DNA of 57,914 nt from an uncultured Gammaproteobacteria bacterium (GCA_964596405.1 CAZQSS010000001.1:23020-80933), one strand, 5' to 3'; positions 2,379 through 37,924 are shown, counted from the first letter of the stretch. Notes: generated by a model not told the origin, from the letters alone. Numbers and translations are program-made.

Positions 2379-4405
2379 ACGCAACCAAGATGAGCTTATT
2401 TTTCAAAAAAAATAATTTTTCGCGCAGTGACGATCCTTTTGTTATACAAGAAGGTAAAATTGCCGATGCCAGCATCAGTGGCGTGATTAAAAAACGCTGG
2501 GTAGAAGATAGCTGGAACGTAGCCGGCGAAAGAGGGGCAACCGTGCCCATAAAAGATTTTTTAGGCATTTCCGTCAATTCTCAACGTTTGATAGTGGTGG
2601 GCCTGTTTATAATTTTTATAGTTTTGCTTTTTTTTAGTCGGCTGCTTTATCTTGAAGTCGTCCGTGGCAATTATTACAGGGAACTGGCCGAAGGCAATCG
2701 GCTGCGTTCTAAACCGATTGTGGCCGAGCGCGGTTTGATTTTTGATAAAAACGGCGCGCCCTTGGTTAACAATATTCCCAATTTTTCTCTTTATCTTATC
2801 CCGCAGGATTTGCCGGAGGATCCGCAAAAATTGGAAGAAGTGCTTCAGCGGATTGCTTCGTTAAACGGTCTGAGGCTGGAAGATCTGAAACAAAAAGTCA
2901 GTAATTCCAAAAAGGCCACGTATCAGTCTATCGGTTTGCGGGATAATTTGGATTACGAAACCGCCGTACTTTTGACAGTGGCCGGCGCCGATTTGCCTGG
3001 CACTCAGGTGGAGCGCGGGTTTAACCGTTTCTATCTGTTCTCGGAGAGCGCCAACCAATCGGTGATTGCCAATACCAAACGCCGGATTGATTCGCTGTCT
3101 CATCTTTTGGGTTATATCGGTAAAGTGTCCAGAGATGATTTGGAACTGAATCCCGATTATCTTTCAACGGATTTTATTGGCAAAACCGGTTTGGAAAAAT
3201 ATTATGAAAAAGTTTTGCGGGGCAAGTATGGTTTAAGAGAAATTGAGGTTGACGCGCTGGGCAAAGAAAAAAACACCGTAAAAGAATCGTCGCCGCAGAG
3301 TGGCAGGAGTTTGGTGTTATCGCTGGATTTGAATTATCAGGAAAAATTGGAAGAAATTTTATCGCGCAATTTAAAGGCCCAGGGGAAAAAGAGAGGATCG
3401 GCGATTGTGATGGATCCTCGGAACGGTGAAATTTTGGCTTTGGTAACTTTGCCGACATTTAACAATAATCTTTTTGCCCAGGGTATTTCCAACAATGATT
3501 ATCAAAAATTGCTGATTGATCCGGACGCGCCGCTTTTTGACCGCGCTTGGAGCGGGACTTACCCCACCGGTTCGGTTATCAAACCGGTGATTGCCGCCGC
3601 CGCCCTCAATGAGGGTGTGATTACCCGTTGGACGACTTTTTCGAGCGTCGGTGGTCTGCGGGTGGATAAATGGTTTTTTCCGGATTGGAAGGCCGGCGGA
3701 CACGGACTGACGGATGTGACTAAGGCTTTGGCCGAATCTGTTAACACCTTCTTCTTTATTGTCGGCGGCGGTTACGAAAAAACAACCGGTTTGGGTTTAG
3801 AAAAACTCATAAGTTATTTTAAAAAAGCCGGTTTGGGTAATTCTTTGGGCGTGGATCTGCCCAATGAGGCGGCCGGTTTTATTCCCAGCCGTGAATGGAA
3901 AGAAGATACTAAAAAAGAGCGGTGGTATATCGGCGACACTTACAATCTTTCCATCGGTCAGGGCGATCTATTGGCCACGCCGCTTCAGGTGGCTAATTAT
4001 ACGGCCGCGATTGCTAATGGCGGTACTCTCTACCGGCCGCACTTAGTCCAAGCAATAATCGATCCTGTGAGCGGCCAAAAACAAAAAATCGTGCCGCAGA
4101 TTATAGAAAAACAATTAGTGCCGGGTAATTTTTTGGATATTATCAAAGAGGGAATGCGAGCGTCCGTCACTTACGGCAGTGCCCGCTCTCTGGCTGACCT
4201 GCCGGTTCAAGTGGCGGCGAAAACCGGCACGGCCCAGTGGTCAAAAAAACTATCCACCCATGCCTGGTTTACGAGTTTTGCTCCATATCGCGATCCGCAA
4301 ATCGTGGTCACAGTTTTAGTGGAAGAAGGCGGTGAAGGTTCAGTGGCGGCGGCGCCGGTAGCCAGGGAATTTTATGCGTGGTGGAGTAATCACCGTAATC
4401 CTTAA
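2375..4405 (+). CDS. mrdA: Penicillin-binding protein 2 (class B transpeptidase)
   Basis: 676 aa with an N-terminal TM helix and transpeptidase motifs SxxK (TGSVIKPV), SxN (ESVNTF) and KTG (AKTGTAQ). It sits in the mreBCD context. Confidence 0.9.
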   Translation: MNATKMSLFFKKNNFSRSDDPFVIQEGKIADASISGVIKKRWVEDSWNVAGERGATVPIKDFLGISVNSQRLIVVGLFIIFIVLLFFSRLLYLEVVRGNYYRELAEGNRLRSKPIVAERGLIFDKNGAPLVNNIPNFSLYLIPQDLPEDPQKLEEVLQRIASLNGLRLEDLKQKVSNSKKATYQSIGLRDNLDYETAVLLTVAGADLPGTQVERGFNRFYLFSESANQSVIANTKRRIDSLSHLLGYIGKVSRDDLELNPDYLSTDFIGKTGLEKYYEKVLRGKYGLREIEVDALGKEKNTVKESSPQSGRSLVLSLDLNYQEKLEEILSRNLKAQGKKRGSAIVMDPRNGEILALVTLPTFNNNLFAQGISNNDYQKLLIDPDAPLFDRAWSGTYPTGSVIKPVIAAAALNEGVITRWTTFSSVGGLRVDKWFFPDWKAGGHGLTDVTKALAESVNTFFFIVGGGYEKTTGLGLEKLISYFKKAGLGNSLGVDLPNEAAGFIPSREWKEDTKKERWYIGDTYNLSIGQGDLLATPLQVANYTAAIANGGTLYRPHLVQAIIDPVSGQKQKIVPQIIEKQLVPGNFLDIIKEGMRASVTYGSARSLADLPVQVAAKTGTAQWSKKLSTHAWFTSFAPYRDPQIVVTVLVEEGGEGSVAAAPVAREFYAWWSNHRNP

Positions 4406-4420
4406 TTGGCGTGTGATGGG

Positions 4421-4449
4421 TTGACCCCTAAATTGAAATCTGATAAAAT
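4421..4449 (+). promoter_or_regulatory. Sigma70-like promoter upstream of greA
   Basis: TTGACC (4421-4426), a 17-nt spacer, then TAAAAT (4444-4449), 18 nt before the greA ATG. Confidence 0.5.
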
Positions 4450-4466
4450 GATTCACATTAAAGTAT

Positions 4467-4931
4467 ATGAACAACGATCCAACATATCTTACAACCGACG
4501 GCTTGGATAATCTTAAAAAAGACTTAACAGGTCTTAAAGCAAAAATGCCGGAGATTGCCCAGCGCATTAATGAAGCTAAAGAATTAGGCGATTTGAGGGA
4601 AAACGCCGAATATCACATGGCTAAAGAAGATTATGCCTTTACTCAGGGTAAAATTTTTGAAATTGAAGACATGTTAAAACGGGTAGTGGTGATTGAAAAG
4701 AACGGTAACGCCACCATTCGCATCGGCTCAACCATAAAAATTAAAAATTTATCCAATCAAAAAGAAATTGAATATACTATTGTCGGTTCTAACGAAGCTT
4801 TTCCTCAAAAAGGCTTTATTTCCAACGAATCTCCTTTGGCTCAAGCTTTTTTGAATCATAAAGAAGGGGATAAGGTAGAGGTAAAAACGCCAGTGGGCGG
4901 CGCTACCTATTTGATTTTGGAAGTTAGATAA
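4467..4931 (+). CDS. greA: Transcription elongation factor GreA
   Basis: 154 aa with an N-terminal coiled coil and the conserved GDLRENAEYH motif, plus a C-terminal globular domain. Confidence 0.9.
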   Translation: MNNDPTYLTTDGLDNLKKDLTGLKAKMPEIAQRINEAKELGDLRENAEYHMAKEDYAFTQGKIFEIEDMLKRVVVIEKNGNATIRIGSTIKIKNLSNQKEIEYTIVGSNEAFPQKGFISNESPLAQAFLNHKEGDKVEVKTPVGGATYLILEVR

Positions 4932-4945
4932 ACTTAATAATTTTT

Positions 4946-4980
4946 AATCCCCGTCCGTCTAAAGCGAGTGGGGATTTTAT
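4946..4980 (+). terminator. Stem-loop plus T-run after greA
   Basis: AATCCCC...GGGGATT stem followed by TTTT, 15 nt after the greA stop. Confidence 0.55.
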
Positions 4981-4985
4981 TATCC

Positions 4986-5015
4986 TTGCCAATCAGGCTT
5001 ATTTTAAGCTATAAT
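4986..5015 (+). promoter_or_regulatory. Sigma70-like promoter upstream of lysS
   Basis: TTGCCA (4986-4991), an 18-nt spacer, then TATAAT (5010-5015). Confidence 0.5.
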
Positions 5016-5042
5016 AGATAAGTAATCTTATCTAAAATTTTT

Positions 5043-6533
5043 ATGACCAAACAAACTCAAGCAACGCCCTTAACCGACGAAGCGGAAGCGCGCTTGCAAA
5101 AATTAAAGGAACTGCAAAAATTGAATGTTAACCCGTACCCGTCCTGGAACGAGCCCAAGCTCGCCTTAGCGGCTGTTTTAGGCGATTTTGAGCGTCTCAA
5201 AGAGCGGGAAGAAGTGGTGCGAGTGGCTGGCCGTCTGCGTTCCATCCGTGGCCACGGCGGTTCCACTTTTGCCCACTTGGAAGATGCCACCGGGCGCTTG
5301 CAGGTCTACTTAAAACAAGACGAACTGGGCGACGAGCCTTATGAACTTTTTTCTAAACTGATTGACATCGGCGATTTTGTCGGCGTGGAAGGTGTTTTGT
5401 TTGAAACCAAGCGCGGTGAAAAAACTTTGCTGGTCAAAAAATTTCAACTTTTAACTAAATCTCTGTTGCCCTTGCCGGACAAGTTTCATGGTCTGGCTGA
5501 CGTGGAAACCCGGTTCCGCCAACGTTATTTGGATTTGCTGGCCAATCCGGAGGCGCGTGATATTGCCCAAAAACGGATTGCCATTGTCAAAGGCATTCGT
5601 GAATTTTTTGAAGCCGAAGGATTTTTAGAAGTGGAAACGCCGATTTTACAGCCTCTGGCCGGCGGCGCCACCGCTAAACCGTTCAAAACCCATCATAATG
5701 CGCTGGATATTGATTTGTTTATGCGCATTGCGCCGGAACTTTATCTCAAGCGTTTGATTGTCGGTGGGTTTGAAAAAGTTTTTGAAATTGCCCGCTGTTT
5801 TAGAAACGAGGGGATTGATTACAGTCATAATCCGGAATTTACCCAGATTGAATTTTATTGGGCTTACGCCGATTATGAAGATTTAATAAAACTGATGGAA
5901 AAGTTTTTTGAATATCTTTTGCCGCGGATTGGCATGCGGATGAAATTCAAATATCAGGATAATATTATTGATTTTACGCCGCCCTTTCCGCGTAAAACTT
6001 TCCGCGAGCTGTTGATTGAGTATATTAAATTGGATATTGACGATTACCCAGATCAGGCCACGCTGTTTGCTTGGGCCAAAAAACATAAAGTGGAAGTAAC
6101 CAGCCGCGACGGTCGCGGGAAAATTTTAGACGAAATCTACAAAACTTTTGTCCGGCCGAAAATTATCCAGCCGTTGTTTATGATTGACCACCCGGTTGAA
6201 CTGTCGCCCTTGGCCAAGCGCAAAGCCGATAATCCCAATTATGTGGAACGCATGCAACTTTTGGCTGCGGGTGGGTTTGAAATGTGCAACGGATTTTCCG
6301 AGCTAAACGATCCGCTGGATCAGGAAGCGCGTTTTAAAGAACAAGAGAAATTGCGTACGGCGGGGGATGAAGAAGCCCAGCGAATGGATGATGATTTTGT
6401 GACTGCCTTAAAGCACGGCATGCCGCCGACCGCCGGTTTAGGTATGGGCATTGACCGTCTGGCCGCGCTTTTAACCGATTCGCACAATGTCAAAGAAGTG
6501 ATTTTATTTCCAACTTTAAAACCAAAAGAGTAA
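5043..6533 (+). CDS. lysS: Lysyl-tRNA synthetase, class II
   Basis: 496 aa with an OB-fold anticodon-binding N-domain and class II motifs (FRNEGID, GLGMGIDRL). Confidence 0.95.
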   Translation: MTKQTQATPLTDEAEARLQKLKELQKLNVNPYPSWNEPKLALAAVLGDFERLKEREEVVRVAGRLRSIRGHGGSTFAHLEDATGRLQVYLKQDELGDEPYELFSKLIDIGDFVGVEGVLFETKRGEKTLLVKKFQLLTKSLLPLPDKFHGLADVETRFRQRYLDLLANPEARDIAQKRIAIVKGIREFFEAEGFLEVETPILQPLAGGATAKPFKTHHNALDIDLFMRIAPELYLKRLIVGGFEKVFEIARCFRNEGIDYSHNPEFTQIEFYWAYADYEDLIKLMEKFFEYLLPRIGMRMKFKYQDNIIDFTPPFPRKTFRELLIEYIKLDIDDYPDQATLFAWAKKHKVEVTSRDGRGKILDEIYKTFVRPKIIQPLFMIDHPVELSPLAKRKADNPNYVERMQLLAAGGFEMCNGFSELNDPLDQEARFKEQEKLRTAGDEEAQRMDDDFVTALKHGMPPTAGLGMGIDRLAALLTDSHNVKEVILFPTLKPKE

Positions 6534-24922: not shown

Positions 24923-24950
24923 TAAAAAGCGCTATCATTATAGCGCTTTC
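24923..24950 (-). terminator. Stem-loop plus T-run closing the four-gene operon
   Basis: The minus strand reads AAGCGCTAT-AATG-ATAGCGCTTTTTATA, 32 nt after the stop at 24982. Confidence 0.65.
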
Positions 24951-24981
24951 TTTAGAAGATGTAAATGCCCTCTCAACACGC

Positions 24982-25815
24982 CTAAAGTGTTGTAATTGGT
25001 CTTGATTGAACTATGTAAAATTTGCCATCAACAAATGCCCATTCTATGTCTTGTGGCGTACCATAATGTTCTTCGATTTTTATCACCAGTCTCGCCAAAT
25101 CTTGAAGTTTGTCGTCGTCTAAAACCGGCGCATTTTTTAACGTTTCGGCAACGGGCATTTCAACTGTTTTGCCTTTGTGATAAATTAACATTACTTTTTG
25201 CTCTGAGATATTTTTTAAAGTAATTTCCAGTGTTGTTTTGTTAACGACAAAATTATTCGGTGTTATCATCCCCTGCACTATCAATTCACCCAACCCTCTG
25301 CCCGCCTCAATCATAATCTCATCTGTATTTTTGGTAAGTGGGTTGACTGAAAACGCTATGCCGGAAGCTTCGCTGTCTACCATGGTTTGAACAACAACCG
25401 CAACTAACAATTTGTTGATTGAAATATTTTGACCTTCGGCATACTCTAGTGCCCGCTGAGACTGTGCTGAATTCCAACACATTTCTATGCTTTCTAATAG
25501 CTTGTCCCTCGTTATATTAAGGTAACTTTCAAGTTGGCCCGCCCAAGAAAATGAAGGCGAATCTTCGACGGTGGCCGAAGAACGAACAGCCACTCTTTCT
25601 ACTCCAAGTTCATCAAAAAATTTAAAAATTTCTTGCTGAAATTCCTCTACCTTTTTTATACCGCTGCGAATTTCTTTATGAACGTCCGTTGTAATTACAA
25701 AACCGGAAGGTACCGGGATACCCGCTTGAAACATTTCGCCTAGAGAAGCGCCCTTCCCGCCGGCCAATAAAACATCATTTTTATTTAGTTGATTGAAGTG
25801 GAGCAGGTTTGCCAT
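24982..25815 (-). CDS. Stand-alone PPDK_N-type ATP-grasp (PEP/pyruvate-binding) domain protein
   Basis: 277 aa counted from the ATG at 25815, with LLAGGKGASLGEM, VAVRSSATVEDS, GIAFSVNP and DIEWAF..YIVQSRPIT motifs. No swivel or PEP-binding domain follows. Confidence 0.8.
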   Translation of the reverse strand: MANLLHFNQLNKNDVLLAGGKGASLGEMFQAGIPVPSGFVITTDVHKEIRSGIKKVEEFQQEIFKFFDELGVERVAVRSSATVEDSPSFSWAGQLESYLNITRDKLLESIEMCWNSAQSQRALEYAEGQNISINKLLVAVVVQTMVDSEASGIAFSVNPLTKNTDEIMIEAGRGLGELIVQGMITPNNFVVNKTTLEITLKNISEQKVMLIYHKGKTVEMPVAETLKNAPVLDDDKLQDLARLVIKIEEHYGTPQDIEWAFVDGKFYIVQSRPITTL

Positions 25816-26692
25816 GTGCGATAAAATTAACCTTATAATCTTTATCTTCAATAGTGGTTTTTGCTTCACCTTTGGCGTTGATGGAAATTCCGATTCCGGC
25901 GTTGTATCCCGCGTTAAAGGCTTCCTCGGGAACACCTAAAACTCTTTGGACGTATGGTTCTAAAGAATCTCCGTGAGCTATTATCCACGACACCAACTTC
26001 CGGCCAGGATGCTTTTTGTGATATGCGCTGGCAAAACGAGCCACAACAGTGATAAATTTGTTCATTCTATCTGCTATTTCCACCGGTCCCTCAGCGCCAT
26101 ACTGTTCTCTTTTTTCTTTATGAGTGTCTAAATTAAAATTTTTCCAAAAATCAGGTCCTTGTCCTTTGTATTCCTTACGTAAAAAATCAGCAAATTCAGG
26201 AACTTGAAACATTAAAGCCTCACCCAGTCTTTTTTCCGGTCGTGACACTCCACCCCTAAATATCGATTTGCCACTTTCTCTTTGAAGCGTGTTGAGTAAT
26301 TGATTGTCCGGTAACCCCTTTTCTTTTAAATAATTTTTGATTTCTTCGGCCACAATTTCGCTGGTTTCTCTTGCTCTCTGGCCAAATTTTTCGTTATCCA
26401 ACCAATACGTCGGACTATTTATTAAAAGGAAATCTGTTTTTTCCGGCTGATTTTCCATAACAACACCGAGTCTCTTCCGAGTTATTTTTTTTACATCTTC
26501 TTTGCCCTCGGGTGTTAATCTGCCCAGACTTTTAATTTCTTCTTCGGTTGGATTTTTTGAATCCACGGGGCGCTTGGTGTCATAAGCACCGTGCCTCTGA
26601 AGAATTAAAATAGTATCCCAGTCAGTCCGAGGAATTTCAGGTGCGATTAACGTTTCTGGTTTTTTATAATCCGCCGTTCCTTCTTTAAGCAT
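25781..26692 (-). CDS. Histidine-phosphatase-superfamily-like protein
   Basis: 303 aa with an RHG motif (ILILQRHGAY), LTPEG, SP..RARET and a second His in IIAHGDS. Confidence 0.55.
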   Translation of the reverse strand: MLKEGTADYKKPETLIAPEIPRTDWDTILILQRHGAYDTKRPVDSKNPTEEEIKSLGRLTPEGKEDVKKITRKRLGVVMENQPEKTDFLLINSPTYWLDNEKFGQRARETSEIVAEEIKNYLKEKGLPDNQLLNTLQRESGKSIFRGGVSRPEKRLGEALMFQVPEFADFLRKEYKGQGPDFWKNFNLDTHKEKREQYGAEGPVEIADRMNKFITVVARFASAYHKKHPGRKLVSWIIAHGDSLEPYVQRVLGVPEEAFNAGYNAGIGISINAKGEAKTTIEDKDYKVNFIAHGKPAPLQSTK

Positions 26693-26702
26693 ATTCTTTT
26701 AG

Positions 26703-27815
26703 TTAAAGAGTTTTTAAATCAAACGGGGCTAAATCCGGCGTCATTACTTTGGTTTTAAGATCAGGCGGCAGGTACCAGACTAAAAGTTTAAACATTGCCG
26801 AGTGGCCGGTTGGTACTGGTTTTATACTTGTGGTTTTTAATAAAATTTTTTTTACTTTATCGTGGAGTCCGAACCACAACGGAAGAAGAAAACGATCAAT
26901 ATCGCCCATAATATCTTTAAACATGGCAAAATTTCTCGATTGCTGATAGGCTACTTCAAAAAGCGTGTAATCGTCCGCGTCTAATTTTTCTTTGGCCTGC
27001 CGTAATAAAATATTGATTTGTTGCTTCATTGAATCGTGTCTTTCTGCCAACATTTTGTTTTCTTCACGAAATTCAACAGCATGGGTAAGCATGTTATATA
27101 CTGGGTGTTGTGAACCACGCATTTTGGCTTGCGCAAAAGGTATGGCCAGCACTTCTTTAAGTGTGGTTGCGTTTTTTGATGTATCTTTAGAGATTACTTC
27201 CAATAATCGATCCCAAATTGAATTTATTTTTTGAGTATTTTTTGACGAATGTTGATCAATCAAATCAATCGCTTCATTAAGTAGCAGCTTAGTTTTTTTG
27301 TTTTCTTCAAGCAATTTTACAAAATTAACTCCACCCAAAGCCTGTTGTAGATATAAGTCCGCGTAGTCACTTTGAAGCATGTCTCGTTGAATTTTAACAA
27401 CCTTATCTTCATACTCTTCCACTTCTTCCCCGACATCAACAAACTTGTGTATTAAATCTTTGAGACTGTTAACATAAAATTCATGTATCGGGCCATCTGG
27501 AAAAAGATAGTTGACAATCCAAAAACGATAGCAAGTTAATTTATGAAATCTTTGATCAATTTCAACGAGAAATGCTAGGTCATCTTGATCCCCTTTTTCA
27601 TAATCATTCTTGATTTTTTCGAAACCTTCAAACAACTCATCGCGCGCCCAAAAACCATACTTTTCGTAAGCCTTGGGATCTCCGGCTATTTTAGGCGCTA
27701 TTTCTTCATAATAATCCACAATCGCCGGAAATTTTTCAGGATAAAACAACATGAACGATTCCAAATCGTTAGGTAAAGTTTGGGGAAATTTTAGCAAATG
27801 TTTATCAATCTTCAT
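26703..27815 (-). CDS. Hypothetical protein (about 370 aa, predicted largely helical)
   Basis: ORF with an ATG at 27815 that overlaps the upstream stop by 11 nt. I recognise no motif. Confidence 0.5.
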   Translation of the reverse strand: MKIDKHLLKFPQTLPNDLESFMLFYPEKFPAIVDYYEEIAPKIAGDPKAYEKYGFWARDELFEGFEKIKNDYEKGDQDDLAFLVEIDQRFHKLTCYRFWIVNYLFPDGPIHEFYVNSLKDLIHKFVDVGEEVEEYEDKVVKIQRDMLQSDYADLYLQQALGGVNFVKLLEENKKTKLLLNEAIDLIDQHSSKNTQKINSIWDRLLEVISKDTSKNATTLKEVLAIPFAQAKMRGSQHPVYNMLTHAVEFREENKMLAERHDSMKQQINILLRQAKEKLDADDYTLFEVAYQQSRNFAMFKDIMGDIDRFLLPLWFGLHDKVKKILLKTTSIKPVPTGHSAMFKLLVWYLPPDLKTKVMTPDLAPFDLKTL

Positions 27816-29070
27816 AAATGTAACCGTCGTTACCATCAAGTATTATTTTTTGTCCGTCTCGTAGCGTGGTGGTGGCGATTTGGGTGCCAACAACCGCCGG
27901 AATATTAAACTCTCTCGCTACAATAGCCGCATGGCAAAGATTGCCGCCGAGATCGGTAATAATGCCAGCCGCTCGACGTATTCCAAGAAGAAACTGGGGT
28001 CGCGTCATTGCTGTTACCAGGATGTCGCCTTTCTGAATTCGGCTCATTTCTTTTGCCATGTCTCCGCTACTAAACATATTAACCAGTCGCGCGGTGCCAG
28101 CAATCCTACCGGCAGAAGCGGGAAAACCACTCAGCATCCTTCTGGGTCTTTTTTCAAATGGTTTAAAGTATTCTCTTAGCGTGCCTTCTAGATCTTGGTA
28201 CTCCTTTGAAGATTTTAACCAGCCCTTTTTGTCATGAGTTATTGGTATGCCTTCAATATGTAAATCGCCGATTATTTGTTTGATGTCTTGATTGGGCGTC
28301 AAACCAATTTTATCATAAGTTGTCACTAAGCGGCCGCGGCGATAAGTATGAAAACCGTAATAACTTTTATTTAAACCGGAAAGCTGATAGCCCCACCAAC
28401 CCCAAGCCTTGCCACCTTGAAATTTAAATGTAAATTCATTTTTTTTGCCCTCAATTATTATAGGCGTGAACGGCTTACAAGTTTCTTTGTTGAAAACAAG
28501 TTCTAACTCTTCGTTTTGAATAAAAGGCCCGAATCTAAGGCCAAACTCGTCTTTAATGTTTTTTAGCAATCTTTCAGAAAATTTAATTTTGAGTTTACGA
28601 ACGATTACTGTGGTACCGCTTTTCTCTGGACTAACACCACGGTTGATAATAAACGGATACTTGTTCCAATCGCCGTGTTTAAGCCAATGATCTTCATCAT
28701 ATTCTAAAACATATTCTTCATCCGAATCTCGTGGCGTAGTAATAAGAGTAAAACTTTTTCCTAAAAAAGAGGTGGAAGTTTTAAGACCCAATCCGAATTC
28801 GCCCAATTGACCTTTCTTTTCTGAAAAACCAAGACGAATGGCTTTAGATGCTTGTTCCTCGGTCATCCCCTTGCCCGTATCGTTTATAGCAATCATGTCG
28901 GGCGTAATATCTATTGAAACAGATAATTTTTTATTAGGAATGCGCGCGTCAATGGCATTATCAATAAGTTCCGAAAGGGCTTCTTGGATGGAATACCCTG
29001 TCTGACTAATTTTTGTGAGAATGCTTCGGTGAGGAGAAACATCAATATACTTTTTAGTTGTTTTTTTCAT
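27805..29070 (-). CDS. GHKL (HATPase_c_3/MORC-type) ATPase fused to a PEP-utilizer swivel phosphohistidine domain
   Basis: 421 aa with N-box ELIDNAIDA, G1 box NDTGKGM and G2 box GEFGLGLK. The C-terminal roughly 100 aa reads GDILVTAMTRP..AAGIITDLGGNLCHAAIVAREFNIPAVVG..DGNDGYIY. Confidence 0.75.
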   Translation of the reverse strand: MKKTTKKYIDVSPHRSILTKISQTGYSIQEALSELIDNAIDARIPNKKLSVSIDITPDMIAINDTGKGMTEEQASKAIRLGFSEKKGQLGEFGLGLKTSTSFLGKSFTLITTPRDSDEEYVLEYDEDHWLKHGDWNKYPFIINRGVSPEKSGTTVIVRKLKIKFSERLLKNIKDEFGLRFGPFIQNEELELVFNKETCKPFTPIIIEGKKNEFTFKFQGGKAWGWWGYQLSGLNKSYYGFHTYRRGRLVTTYDKIGLTPNQDIKQIIGDLHIEGIPITHDKKGWLKSSKEYQDLEGTLREYFKPFEKRPRRMLSGFPASAGRIAGTARLVNMFSSGDMAKEMSRIQKGDILVTAMTRPQFLLGIRRAAGIITDLGGNLCHAAIVAREFNIPAVVGTQIATTTLRDGQKIILDGNDGYIYED

Positions 29071-29079
29071 ACCTCGTTT

Positions 29080-29108
29080 ATTATAAAACTTCTGACCGTC
29101 TCTGACAA
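29080..29108 (-). promoter_or_regulatory. Sigma70-like promoter of the four-gene operon
   Basis: The minus strand reads TTGTCA (29108-29103), a 17-nt spacer, then TATAAT (29085-29080), followed by AAACGAGGT before the ATG. Confidence 0.6.
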
Positions 29109-36793: not shown

Positions 36794-37924
36794 TTAAAAT
36801 ATAGACTGTGGGCTTTCCTTTTCGGTGGGGGCATAAGATTTGTATCGCGCGCTTCTTCCCAAACCGATTCGCTCAATCTTTTTAAGTTTGAGCAATACTT
36901 CAAGCGTTTGTTTTACTGTCGGTCTGGCTATTTTGGTATTTTCCGCGATATCGCCAGTACTCGTTTCTTTTGCCTTTTCAATGTATTGCCAAACGGTTAA
37001 CTGTTTTTCTGACAGAATTTTTTCTATATTTTCTTTGGATAATAATTCCACCGCCATTTGCGATTGTTTCAAGATGATATCTAAAAAGAAACCAAGCCAA
37101 TCGGCGATGTTTTCATTTTCTGTCCCTATTGTTTTTTGACTGCGCCGTAGGGCAATATAATAATCCGGTTTGTTGTCTTCAACTAATTTTTCATGAGAAA
37201 CATAGGGAATATACAAATATCCCGCTTGGAGTAGCAATAAGTTGGTGAGCACTCGGGATAAACGGCCGTTGCCGTCGGTAAACGGGTGTATCTTCAAAAA
37301 TTCAACCAAAAAATTACCAATCAAGAGTAGGGGGTGGTATTTATTTTCCTCTAATTTTTTTTGCGTCCACTCAACCAGATCTCTCGTTTGGCCCGGAGTA
37401 AGATATGCCGGCACAGTGTCAAACAGAATAGCGACTGATTTTCCAGTATCGTCTAACACGTGAACTTTGTTTTCGCCTTTTTTATAATCGCCGCGATGTT
37501 TTTCGTCCTTATCTACATATTTAAGAAGTTCTTGGTGAAAATGTTTAATGGTACTTTCACTAAATTTTTGCCCTTTCCACGAGTTAAAAACATTGTCCAG
37601 GAGTTCATAGTATCCCCGCGCTTCTTGTTTGTCGCGGTTGGTAAATTTTTGGATGTTAATGCCGCGCATCAATTTTTCAATGTCTTCGTCGGACAGGCGA
37701 GAGCCCTCAATGCGGGTGGACGCGCCGGTGGAGGTGATCAAAACAGAGCGTTTTAAACGCCCCAAAACCTGTGGGCTTAAGCGAGCGCCTGTTATCCATT
37801 GTCCTTTTAGTTCATCAATTTTGGCGGTTTTAGAGACAATAAAAGACGGAATCTGCTCAATTCGTCTGAAAAAATTATTCGAAATTTGATGATTTTCTGT
37901 TATTTTTTGGCTAATATCAGGCAT
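36794..37924 (-). CDS. Fic family protein (AMPylase-type) with C-terminal winged HTH
   Basis: 376 aa with the canonical Fic motif HPFTDGNGRLSR, plus a C-terminal DIAENTKIARPTVKQTLEVLLK helix-turn-helix. Confidence 0.9.
   Translation of the reverse strand: MPDISQKITENHQISNNFFRRIEQIPSFIVSKTAKIDELKGQWITGARLSPQVLGRLKRSVLITSTGASTRIEGSRLSDEDIEKLMRGINIQKFTNRDKQEARGYYELLDNVFNSWKGQKFSESTIKHFHQELLKYVDKDEKHRGDYKKGENKVHVLDDTGKSVAILFDTVPAYLTPGQTRDLVEWTQKKLEENKYHPLLLIGNFLVEFLKIHPFTDGNGRLSRVLTNLLLLQAGYLYIPYVSHEKLVEDNKPDYYIALRRSQKTIGTENENIADWLGFFLDIILKQSQMAVELLSKENIEKILSEKQLTVWQYIEKAKETSTGDIAENTKIARPTVKQTLEVLLKLKKIERIGLGRSARYKSYAPTEKESPQSIF

Follow-up and report, generated by a model that had tools for sequence, protein, structure and literature searches.

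Comparison with described systems

In HpeHI, CreHI and PpsAB (phenylphosphate synthase) a free ATP-grasp protein (pyro)phosphorylates a swivel histidine on a second protein, from which the group is passed to a bound acceptor (PMC12167813). RPH (rifampin phosphotransferase) carries out the same transfer from ATP-grasp domain to swivel histidine to acceptor in cis (PMC4844700), and VadK is a regulatory histidine kinase derived from a dikinase (PMC13400623). The present work concerns a cluster of four minus-strand genes, named g1 to g4, in a 57,914-nucleotide stretch of DNA from an uncultured Gammaproteobacteria bacterium (CAZQSS010000001.1:23020-80933; the whole stretch analysed is called the window). 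We propose that the four genes make up one multi-component dikinase-type phosphohistidine transfer unit around a MORC-type ATPase, a reading for which we see the case as evenly balanced.

Shared with HpeHI, CreHI and PpsAB are a separate PPDK_N-type protein, a C-terminal swivel histidine in a GGxx(C/S)HAAI motif and the adjacency of the two genes (PMC12167813). In those systems the swivel is joined to an RPH-like phenol-binding domain, whereas the first 305 residues of g1, at the place of the RPH-like N-terminal domain, are a MORC-type GHKL+S5 module; they also have no counterpart of g2 and no phosphatase of their own, and their role is the catabolism of aromatic compounds. RPH (PMC4844700) and the PRK06241 family, which includes PigC/RedH, provide the best NCBIfam and PDB matches of g4 and of the g1 swivel, but RPH unites all its domains in one chain, and neither g1 nor g2 resembles its rifampin-binding domain. 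The GHKL+S5 arrangement with all its ATPase motifs is common to g1, the prokaryotic MORC/paraMORC proteins (PMC2292703) and MzaB of the MZA system. The prokaryotic MORC/paraMORC proteins differ by their links to helicases, nucleases and methylases and by their other C-terminal regions; g1 has Bergerat motifs I-IV and the S5 transducer, and no recurrent helicase, nuclease or restriction-modification neighbourhood. Iyer et al. (2008; PMC2292703) do not mention PEP-utilizer (PEP, phosphoenolpyruvate) or swivel domains among the conflict contexts of prokaryotic MORCs, and no description of a GHKL or MORC fusion with a PEP-utilizer domain turned up in full-text searches of the literature.

A first-pass annotation of this DNA, made from the sequence alone, had considered the distribution of ATP-grasp and swivel histidine over separate genes as unusual, for which HpeHI, CreHI and PpsAB are in fact precedents (PMC12167813). 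The split itself is already known; what is new is the fusion with GHKL, the presence of g2 and the phosphatase that comes with the system. The view expressed there that no described system has this composition agrees with our searches, which returned no paper and no PADLOC system of this kind, and no published or database-assigned function for the cluster. PFK-2/FBPase-2 is a eukaryotic single chain that pairs a kinase with a histidine phosphatase and sets the level of a messenger. In PPIP5K, also a eukaryotic single chain, an ATP-grasp kinase is combined with a reversing histidine-phosphatase fold (PMC11836120). Both have known substrates and no phosphohistidine carrier, and the analogy between the cluster and these kinase-plus-phosphatase proteins would be functional only.

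The g1 fusion protein and the free ATP-grasp protein g4

The segment 24982-29070 of the window (minus strand) is occupied by four tightly packed, translationally coupled genes in the order g1-g2-g3-g4. Their open reading frames (ORFs) have exactly the coordinates of the first-pass annotation, whose description of a self-contained operon is borne out:

27805-29070, minus strand: g1, 421 amino acids (aa), MORC-type GHKL+S5 ATPase with a C-terminal phosphohistidine swivel
26703-27815, minus strand: g2, 370 aa, acidic, all-alpha, new family
25781-26692, minus strand: g3, 303 aa, divergent histidine-phosphatase-superfamily protein with a large helical cap
24982-25815, minus strand: g4, 277 aa, stand-alone PPDK_N ATP-grasp nucleotide-binding domain

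The 3′ end of g1 overlaps the start of g2, including its ATG, by 11 nt, and the overlap between g3 and g4 is 35 nt. Three domains are recognized in g1:

28591-29013, minus strand: GHKL (Bergerat) ATP-binding domain, about residues 20-160 (HATPase_c_3)
28156-28590, minus strand: S5-fold transducer, about residues 161-305 (Morc6_S5)
27808-28155, minus strand: swivel domain, residues 306-421 (Pfam PEP-utilizers)

The fusion of a GHKL ATPase with a swivel domain, called earlier from motifs, was matched by the Pfam models HATPase_c_3 (2.1e-18, residues 26-136), Morc6_S5 (8.7e-7, residues 227-301; 29.5 bits for a gathering cutoff of 26.2) and PEP-utilizers (6.8e-25, residues 345-416). Morc6_S5 is annotated in nearly all g1 homologues. 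Among the solved structures of the PDB, human MORC3 and MORC2 come closest to the GHKL part, which also matches MORC4 (1e-9 to 3e-5 for the three, with MORC3 at 1e-9); for the swivel, matches of about 1e-19 were obtained with PEP synthase and RPH. By these sequence matches the GHKL part is a MORC-type GHKL+S5 module, which refines the plain GHKL call made before.

Homologues of g1 are overall 55-98% identical, and 14 of them (57-80% identity) were aligned (alignment A1). All positions of the GHKL motifs ELIDNAIDA (E34, N38, D41), DTGKGM (D64, G68), GEFGLGLK (G90, G93, G95) and GTT (G152, T153) are invariant, as is the HDKK motif H279-D280-K281-K282 of the S5 domain. The predicted phospho-acceptor is His380 in GGNLCHAAIVAREF, whose codon was checked at 27931-27933; the swivel motif GGNLCHAAI with H380 (general form GGxLCHAAI) is invariant too. 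Since the ATPase motifs, HDKK and His380 do not vary, both the ATPase and the phospho-carrier look catalytically competent. Neither a HisKA or DHp (dimerization and histidine phosphotransfer) domain nor a receiver domain was found in g1-g4 with Pfam and NCBIfam.

The matches of g1 to defence models of PADLOC and NCBIfam are restricted to MzaB (7.6e-7) and TmtA, and fall in the first ~110 residues of g1. Within the plasmid collection, the nearest relative without a swivel is encoded by a haloarchaeal (Haladaptatus) plasmid as an “ATP-binding protein” of 469 aa, 27% identical across g1 residues 18-315 (GHKL+S5). It is followed by a PLD-helicase (PbeA/DrmD-like) gene, and genes coding MazF and HsdR-N lie near.

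The reading of gene 4 as a lone PPDK_N ATP-grasp domain was upheld by its matches to Pfam PPDK_N (5.5e-79) and to the NCBIfam PEP synthase N-terminus (3e-77). K21, R78, E258, Q270 and R272 are invariant (alignment A4) and the nucleotide-binding motifs are intact. Compared with longer PPDK_N domains the protein misses a helical insert of ~37 aa, and its Clostridial counterpart is even shorter. In NCBIfam the g1 swivel and the g4 ATP-grasp domain are both nearest to PEP synthase and to the RPH-like PRK06241 family, with scores far under the full-length cutoffs (106 versus 598 bits for PEP synthase) because each protein carries a single domain. No PEP/pyruvate TIM-barrel (PEP-utilizers_C) was found in g1-g4 with Pfam and NCBIfam, and the idea of a PEP synthase or PPDK split in pieces was rejected on this ground.

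Linkage and variants of the cluster across genomes

A set of 96 loci was assembled from GTDB representative genomes (31), a metagenome scan (55) and exact-protein look-ups (10); it falls into 58 groups at 80% g2 identity, and the ORFs of all loci were annotated with custom hidden Markov models of six modules. The loci belong to many lineages of the Candidate Phyla Radiation (CPR: Saccharimonadia, Parcubacteria-group classes, Kuenen-, Berkel- and Levybacteria), to one Woesearchaeota metagenome-assembled genome and to a human-gut Clostridia lineage. In the latter the cluster lies beside spoIIA and spoIID, so it is genuinely Firmicutes, and its g1 cluster has 613 member sequences from 244 contigs. 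The co-localisation of the four genes in related genomes, proposed as a check of the first-pass annotation, was found in many genomes; the domain calls held as well, and none of the outcomes that it had named as refuting, an assigned function of the whole cluster included, came to light.

A gene ending with a swivel domain is found directly upstream of g2 in 90 of the 96 loci, the other six being mostly accounted for by contig edges or gene-calling gaps. The GHKL fusion is present in 72 of the 73 loci with at least 1.3 kb of upstream sequence. Where at least 3.5 kb of downstream sequence is available (36 loci), PPDK_N is found in 32 loci and a histidine-phosphatase-like gene in 33 (g3 in 21/36, or the g3-like c10 in 12/36). 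One gene order recurs across dozens of independent loci, which places the arrangement far beyond chance.

Extra proteins with a swivel (“X-swivel” proteins) are encoded in 14 of these 36 loci, and their N-terminal domains have no match in the PDB or Pfam beyond the swivel. At the g4 position L004 and L011 have a full-length protein of PPDK_N-central-swivel architecture, while other loci have separate X-swivel and PPDK_N proteins. In most four-gene loci the swivel of g1 is the only one available to g4, and the four-gene form of the window has the look of a streamlined version, with no swivel partner for g4 remaining other than g1. Among the g2 homologues, the most divergent ones (E 1e-29 to 1e-33) follow a stand-alone swivel gene without GHKL. 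In L032 and L033 an upstream stop codon delimits the swivel protein, which has ~116-129 aa; the one of L036 has 116 aa, and L032 and L036 also have a histidine-phosphatase-like gene. The position of distant g2 genes after a GHKL-less swivel indicates that the deepest core is swivel plus g2, usually with a phosphatase; GHKL is a later addition fixed in the main branch. A separate case is L083 (1151-3361), whose 736-aa chimera has a periplasmic-binding-protein-like and GGDEF-like start (read by eye) joined to g1 at residue ~170; it lacks the GHKL half and is probably a deletion or an assembly artefact.

Around the cluster housekeeping genes predominate (uvrABC, ychF, gyrA, glyS, enolase/iPGM, rpsL operon), without conservation from locus to locus. 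L012 (Parcubacteria M6-OD1-3) is an exception to this variability, sharing the metG...tatD position of the window, a synteny that suggests a Parcubacteria-group CPR bacterium as the source of the window. The g1 proteins of the window and L012 are 67% identical, as compared to 40% for the flanking MetRS and 46% for TatD, and g1 of CPR and Clostridia are 60% identical. The slower change of g1 relative to MetRS and TatD implies strong constraint, lateral exchange, or both. In the segment 1006-5681 of L012 a full-length dikinase gene is split between a PPDK_N part (2237-2935) and a remainder (3957-5681) by a RhuM+Fic gene (2962-3954), with an IS200-like Y1 transposase and a NUDIX gene just upstream.

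Regulators are found near the cluster in two forms. TrmB-family regulators lie within a few kb in four CPR loci (L012, L024, L039:6115-6879, L066:139-996), and a divergent gene for an AraC helix-turn-helix (HTH) plus GyrI-like/Cass2 regulator is positioned just upstream of g1 in most gut-Clostridia loci (e.g., L013:5069-5887).

The cluster was not found in 50,697 phage records, 72,556 plasmids or IMG/VR, and the possibility that it is cargo of mobile elements or phages was dropped as these collections gave no match. No recurrent link with helicases, nucleases or restriction-modification genes was detected in the 96 loci, where only lone DEAD helicases occur in L035 (divergent) and L039. Next to the L040 cluster (L040:16049-19266; Campbellbacteria CP064977.1), phage-like genes (AAA_24, Phage_rep_O, ParB_N plus N6_N4 methyltransferase) begin ~3 kb downstream, after ychF and small ORFs.

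g2, an all-alpha protein linked to the swivel

The first-pass annotation recognized no motif in g2, and library searches by sequence or fold gave no match either: none in Pfam, NCBIfam and PADLOC, nothing better than E 0.11 by profile search of the PDB, and no consistent weak Pfam signal when 32 family members were scanned. The predicted structure is all-alpha (predicted local distance difference test, pLDDT, 91) and has no fold neighbours in the PDB and BFVD according to Foldseek (best E about 0.15, template modelling (TM) score about 0.2). The protein is acidic and soluble, with six invariant Asp residues and many invariant polar and aromatic residues (among them N16, D17, Y25, K28, W99, N102, Y103, D107, E136, D153, Y155, K300, D301 and D307). 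NCBI, Logan and ENA contain exact copies of it. Its family comprises 108 clusters at 90% identity, and a search of 1.84 billion proteins yielded just 49 representatives when grouped at 50% identity; complete representatives are stand-alone proteins of ~330-400 aa, shorter entries being fragments. Judged by gene linkage, on which the assignment rests entirely, g2 is the obligatory downstream partner of g1-type swivel genes.

The earlier idea that g2 is analogous to the central domain of rifampin phosphotransferases, or more generally that it is a homologue or analogue of the substrate-binding domain of RPH or HpeH, was rejected at the level of detectable similarity. The hhalign probability for g2 with RPH-like neighbours (the full-length dikinase of L004 and the X-swivel protein of L025) is below 1%, and no RPH structure is present among its 50 best Foldseek PDB matches (best E 0.16). 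A pore-forming or membrane protein was also discarded: the weak Foldseek matches to ABC transmembrane domains and ClyA-like toxins have TM <0.25 and the protein is acidic and hydrophilic. We note that the invariant g2 motif FWIVNYxFxDG (residues ~97-112, window 27480-27530) is similar to FW(K/M)VNYNFEDE, which sits in both OAS domains of human OAS2 (PDB 9h1z; E 0.11), a likeness probably due to chance.

g3 and the exchangeable phosphatases

For g3 the histidine-phosphatase fold and catalytic residues proposed earlier stand, but the Pfam score does not reach its threshold (His_Phos_1 1.3e-3; 18.9 bits, below the gathering cutoff of 21.7). The AlphaFold model (pLDDT 91) has 148 Foldseek matches in the PDB at E<=1e-3 (best 1.9e-7), and the best 50 of the 148 all belong to the histidine-phosphatase superfamily (acid phosphatases, PhoE, PGAM and others). 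R33-H34, R106, E158 and H240 are invariant, leaving the catalytic tetrad intact. g3 is probably an active, divergent member of this superfamily. The c10 family (349-393 aa), which takes the place of g3 in the 12 loci mentioned above, has RH..R..E..HG motifs; its profile comparison with g3 is weak (E 4e-3 to 7e-4) and it has no match in the PDB and Pfam.

The Woesearchaeota locus has no g3 and codes instead for an acylphosphatase (92 aa) and an LMWPc protein with an intact CX5R motif, in the order g1, g2, acylphosphatase, LMWPc, X-swivel, PPDK_N; L091 provides another example of such a locus. Since the g3 slot can be filled by an unrelated phosphatase, the system appears to require the activity of a phosphatase rather than the g3 fold in particular. 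The eraser role suggested for g3 by the first-pass annotation gains support from this archaeal replacement. Acylphosphatase genes (PF00708, about 1e-18) directly follow g4 or g2 in seven loci of four independent groups; the window copy has none:

L008:4888-5154, L031, L051-L053, L035:9113-9391 and L091:3886-4164: acylphosphatase genes

Their recurrence is a hint of an acyl-phosphate species. In succinyl-CoA synthetase and the NDP-forming acyl-CoA synthetases, an ATP-grasp domain delivers phosphate to a mobile phosphohistidine that exchanges with an acyl phosphate, and SixA exemplifies a histidine-phosphatase fold able to erase phosphohistidine. Both are mechanistic analogies, SixA sharing only the superfamily with g3 and succinyl-CoA synthetase having no sequence relationship.

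Expression signals, composition and surroundings in the window

Candidate signals for transcription were identified at both ends of the operon:

29080-29108, minus strand: sigma-70-like promoter-like site TTGTCA-17-TATAAT, in a 38-nt gap after the cvpA stop codon
24916-24951, minus strand: intrinsic-terminator-like element after g4, a 12-bp hairpin (24924-24951) followed by a U-rich tail

The promoter named by the first-pass annotation is there, scoring 11/12, and a GAGG Shine-Dalgarno sequence lies between it and the g1 ATG, but promoter-like sites are not in excess across the region (15 observed versus 13.5 expected from shuffling), and its assignment as the operon promoter is suggestive only. 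The hairpin and T-run terminator noted before was recovered as hairpin plus U-rich tract (-18.8 kcal/mol, z = -2.6). A near-consensus promoter-like site for tatD (TTTACA-17-TATAAT, window 24937-24965) shares bases with the terminator hairpin, its -10 hexamer being part of the terminator stem and loop.

The cluster has 39.1% GC, as compared to 43.7% for the window, and ranks in the lowest 7% among equal-sized windows; the GC content at third codon positions is 0.32-0.37 in the cluster versus 0.42-0.47 in the flanking genes. The AT-richness seen by the first-pass annotation is real but modest. No tRNA genes or Rfam families (gathering score) were found in the whole 58-kb window (1-57914), and no second copies of the six cluster modules elsewhere in it by custom profiles, in a scan run without the PEP-utilizers_C model. 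The AT-rich segment 33500-37924 (33-36% GC), ~5-9 kb beyond the promoter end of the cluster, resembles a small accessory island with two ArsR-like HTH ORFs, an MBL-fold ORF, membrane ORFs and a 376-aa Fic-domain protein (36794-37924, motif HPFTDGNGR).

Proposed mechanism and alternative explanations

In the transfer unit that we propose, g4 would bind ATP and load His380 of g1 in trans with the beta-phosphate, by homology with the HpeI to HpeH and PpsB to PpsA reactions. The charged swivel would then dock on g2 and pass the phosphoryl group to an acceptor bound there, a step suggested by gene linkage because g2 is co-translated with g1 and is found only beside such swivel genes. g3, or LMWPc and acylphosphatase in its place, would hydrolyse the phospho-product or the phosphohistidine and thereby make the cycle reversible, so that the module would set the level of a labile phosphorylated species and not accumulate an end product. 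The recurrent acylphosphatase gene suggests that the product may be an acyl phosphate, formed on a small-molecule carboxylate or on an Asp or Glu side chain. Least certain is the part of GHKL+S5. Most likely this module acts as a clamp that dimerises under the control of ATP and offers the acceptor or governs access to it, or else is itself the switched output; it sits where two-component dikinases carry their substrate-binding domain. As to the role of the cluster, we favour a controlled phosphorylation of some metabolite or xenobiotic by anaerobic fermenters over anti-phage defence.

Several observations weigh against this proposal. About 40% of the well-covered loci have X-swivel proteins or a full-length PPDK_N-central-swivel enzyme (L004, L011), and g4 may mainly serve these extra swivels, g1 being charged otherwise. 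Four of the 36 loci have no nearby PPDK_N, and in L036, the swivel-only locus with most flank, none is found within 8 kb upstream; in such cases a metabolite might serve as phospho-donor and charge the histidine by way of g2, much as PEP charges Enzyme I. GHKL could also phosphorylate the histidine itself, in the manner of histidine kinases. Finally, sequence, profile and fold searches gave no similarity of g2 to any known substrate-binding domain, and g2 could be a scaffold, a regulator or the phospho-acceptor itself.

A different account, which we regard as unlikely, has the cluster coding for a dikinase of RPH/HpeHI type acting on a small molecule (xenobiotic, antibiotic or metabolite) bound in g2 or in the GHKL nucleotide pocket; GHKL could be a target-mimic binding domain and g3 would recycle or proofread. 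Aminocoumarins, radicicol and other natural products act on the GHKL nucleotide pocket. The g1 layout, a putative binding domain followed by a C-terminal swivel, is the one of HpeH and RPH, g4 corresponding to HpeI, and the varied N-termini of X-swivel proteins would fit several dikinases with different substrates served by one shared ATP-grasp protein. The invariance of Glu34 and of the S5 lysines is difficult to reconcile with it, as a mere binding decoy would not require them, and a dedicated phosphatase that undoes the product fits detoxification poorly. The abundant invariant polar and aromatic residues of the acidic, soluble g2 are ligand-site-like, yet the protein is not similar to the substrate-binding domain of RPH or HpeH. 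The gene neighbourhood is likewise two-sided: the divergent AraC-HTH plus GyrI-like/Cass2 effector-binding regulator of most gut-Clostridia loci, the TrmB-family regulators near four CPR loci and malic enzyme, iPGM/enolase or sugar kinase neighbours in some loci are consistent with small-molecule metabolism, but the Clostridial synteny comes from closely related genomes and L022 and L023 lack that regulator.

An anti-phage or conflict system is a quite doubtful explanation. The MORC-type GHKL+S5 would sense or clamp invader nucleic acid and the phosphohistidine machinery would be the effector, either by phosphorylation of invader DNA, RNA or nucleotide, or, together with the phosphatase, by exhausting the energy supply in a futile cycle from ATP to AMP + 2 Pi (abortive infection); for such a cycle alone g2 would be superfluous. 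The g1 similarity to the GHKL modules of MzaB and TmtA, its only defence matches in PADLOC/NCBIfam, points in this direction, as does the Haladaptatus plasmid relative near PLD-helicase, MazF and HsdR-N genes, which fits the prokaryotic MORC contexts of PMC2292703. No PADLOC model (PADLOC-DB 2.0) was matched over its full length, though, and g2, g3, g4, X-swivel and c10 have no match at all. The patchy cross-domain distribution (CPR, DPANN, Clostridia) with 48-85% identity, the slight AT-richness, the modular and swappable accessory components and the occasional adjacency of a ParE toxin, DNA methyltransferase or Fic gene would all suit a defence system; against this stand the absence of the cluster from the phage, plasmid and IMG/VR collections, flanks made mostly of housekeeping genes and not of defence islands, the lack of a nuclease, helicase or other classic effector, and the higher conservation of g1 than of MetRS and TatD between the window and L012, unlike arms-race genes.

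A histidine-kinase-like relay, in which GHKL would pass the ATP gamma-phosphate to His380 as the catalytic and ATP-binding (CA) domain does to the DHp histidine, with g4 then using the phosphohistidine with AMP and Pi or PPi, or with g2 as acceptor (His to Asp), is very improbable: the additional HATPase_c match of g1 (2.4e-9), the recurrent acylphosphatase and the six invariant Asp of g2, which would suit a phospho-Asp acceptor, and the precedent of VadK for dikinase parts turned into a regulatory histidine kinase (PMC13400623) are outweighed by the MORC type of the GHKL with its S5 transducer, which is not a kinase CA domain, the lack of HisKA/DHp and receiver domains, the swivel-only variants without any GHKL and the presence of PPDK_N in 32/36 loci.

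Implications

Taken as a whole, the proposed transfer unit tentatively suggests a new class of system, possible though less than probable, which would couple a MORC-type clamp, gated by ATP, to a phosphohistidine relay of PEP-utilizer type in CPR, DPANN and gut Clostridia. g4 would charge the relay, g2 would be the transfer site and interchangeable phosphatases (histidine phosphatase, low-molecular-weight protein tyrosine phosphatase (LMW-PTP), acylphosphatase) would reset it, the output being either a new mechanism of immunity or abortive infection, or a new chemistry based on a labile phospho-messenger or an acyl phosphate.

Swivel-histidine dikinases and MORC/GHKL ATPases are both well studied and have no described link between them. 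Their conserved fusion, which comes with a fold-orphan partner and with phosphatases of its own, suggests a chemistry or a mode of regulation outside the current models of either family. Depending on the acceptor, the cluster may represent a new resistance, signalling or defence mechanism. Most genes of its hosts (CPR, DPANN and gut Clostridia) have no function assigned, and solving this cluster would annotate a recurrent piece of microbial dark matter.

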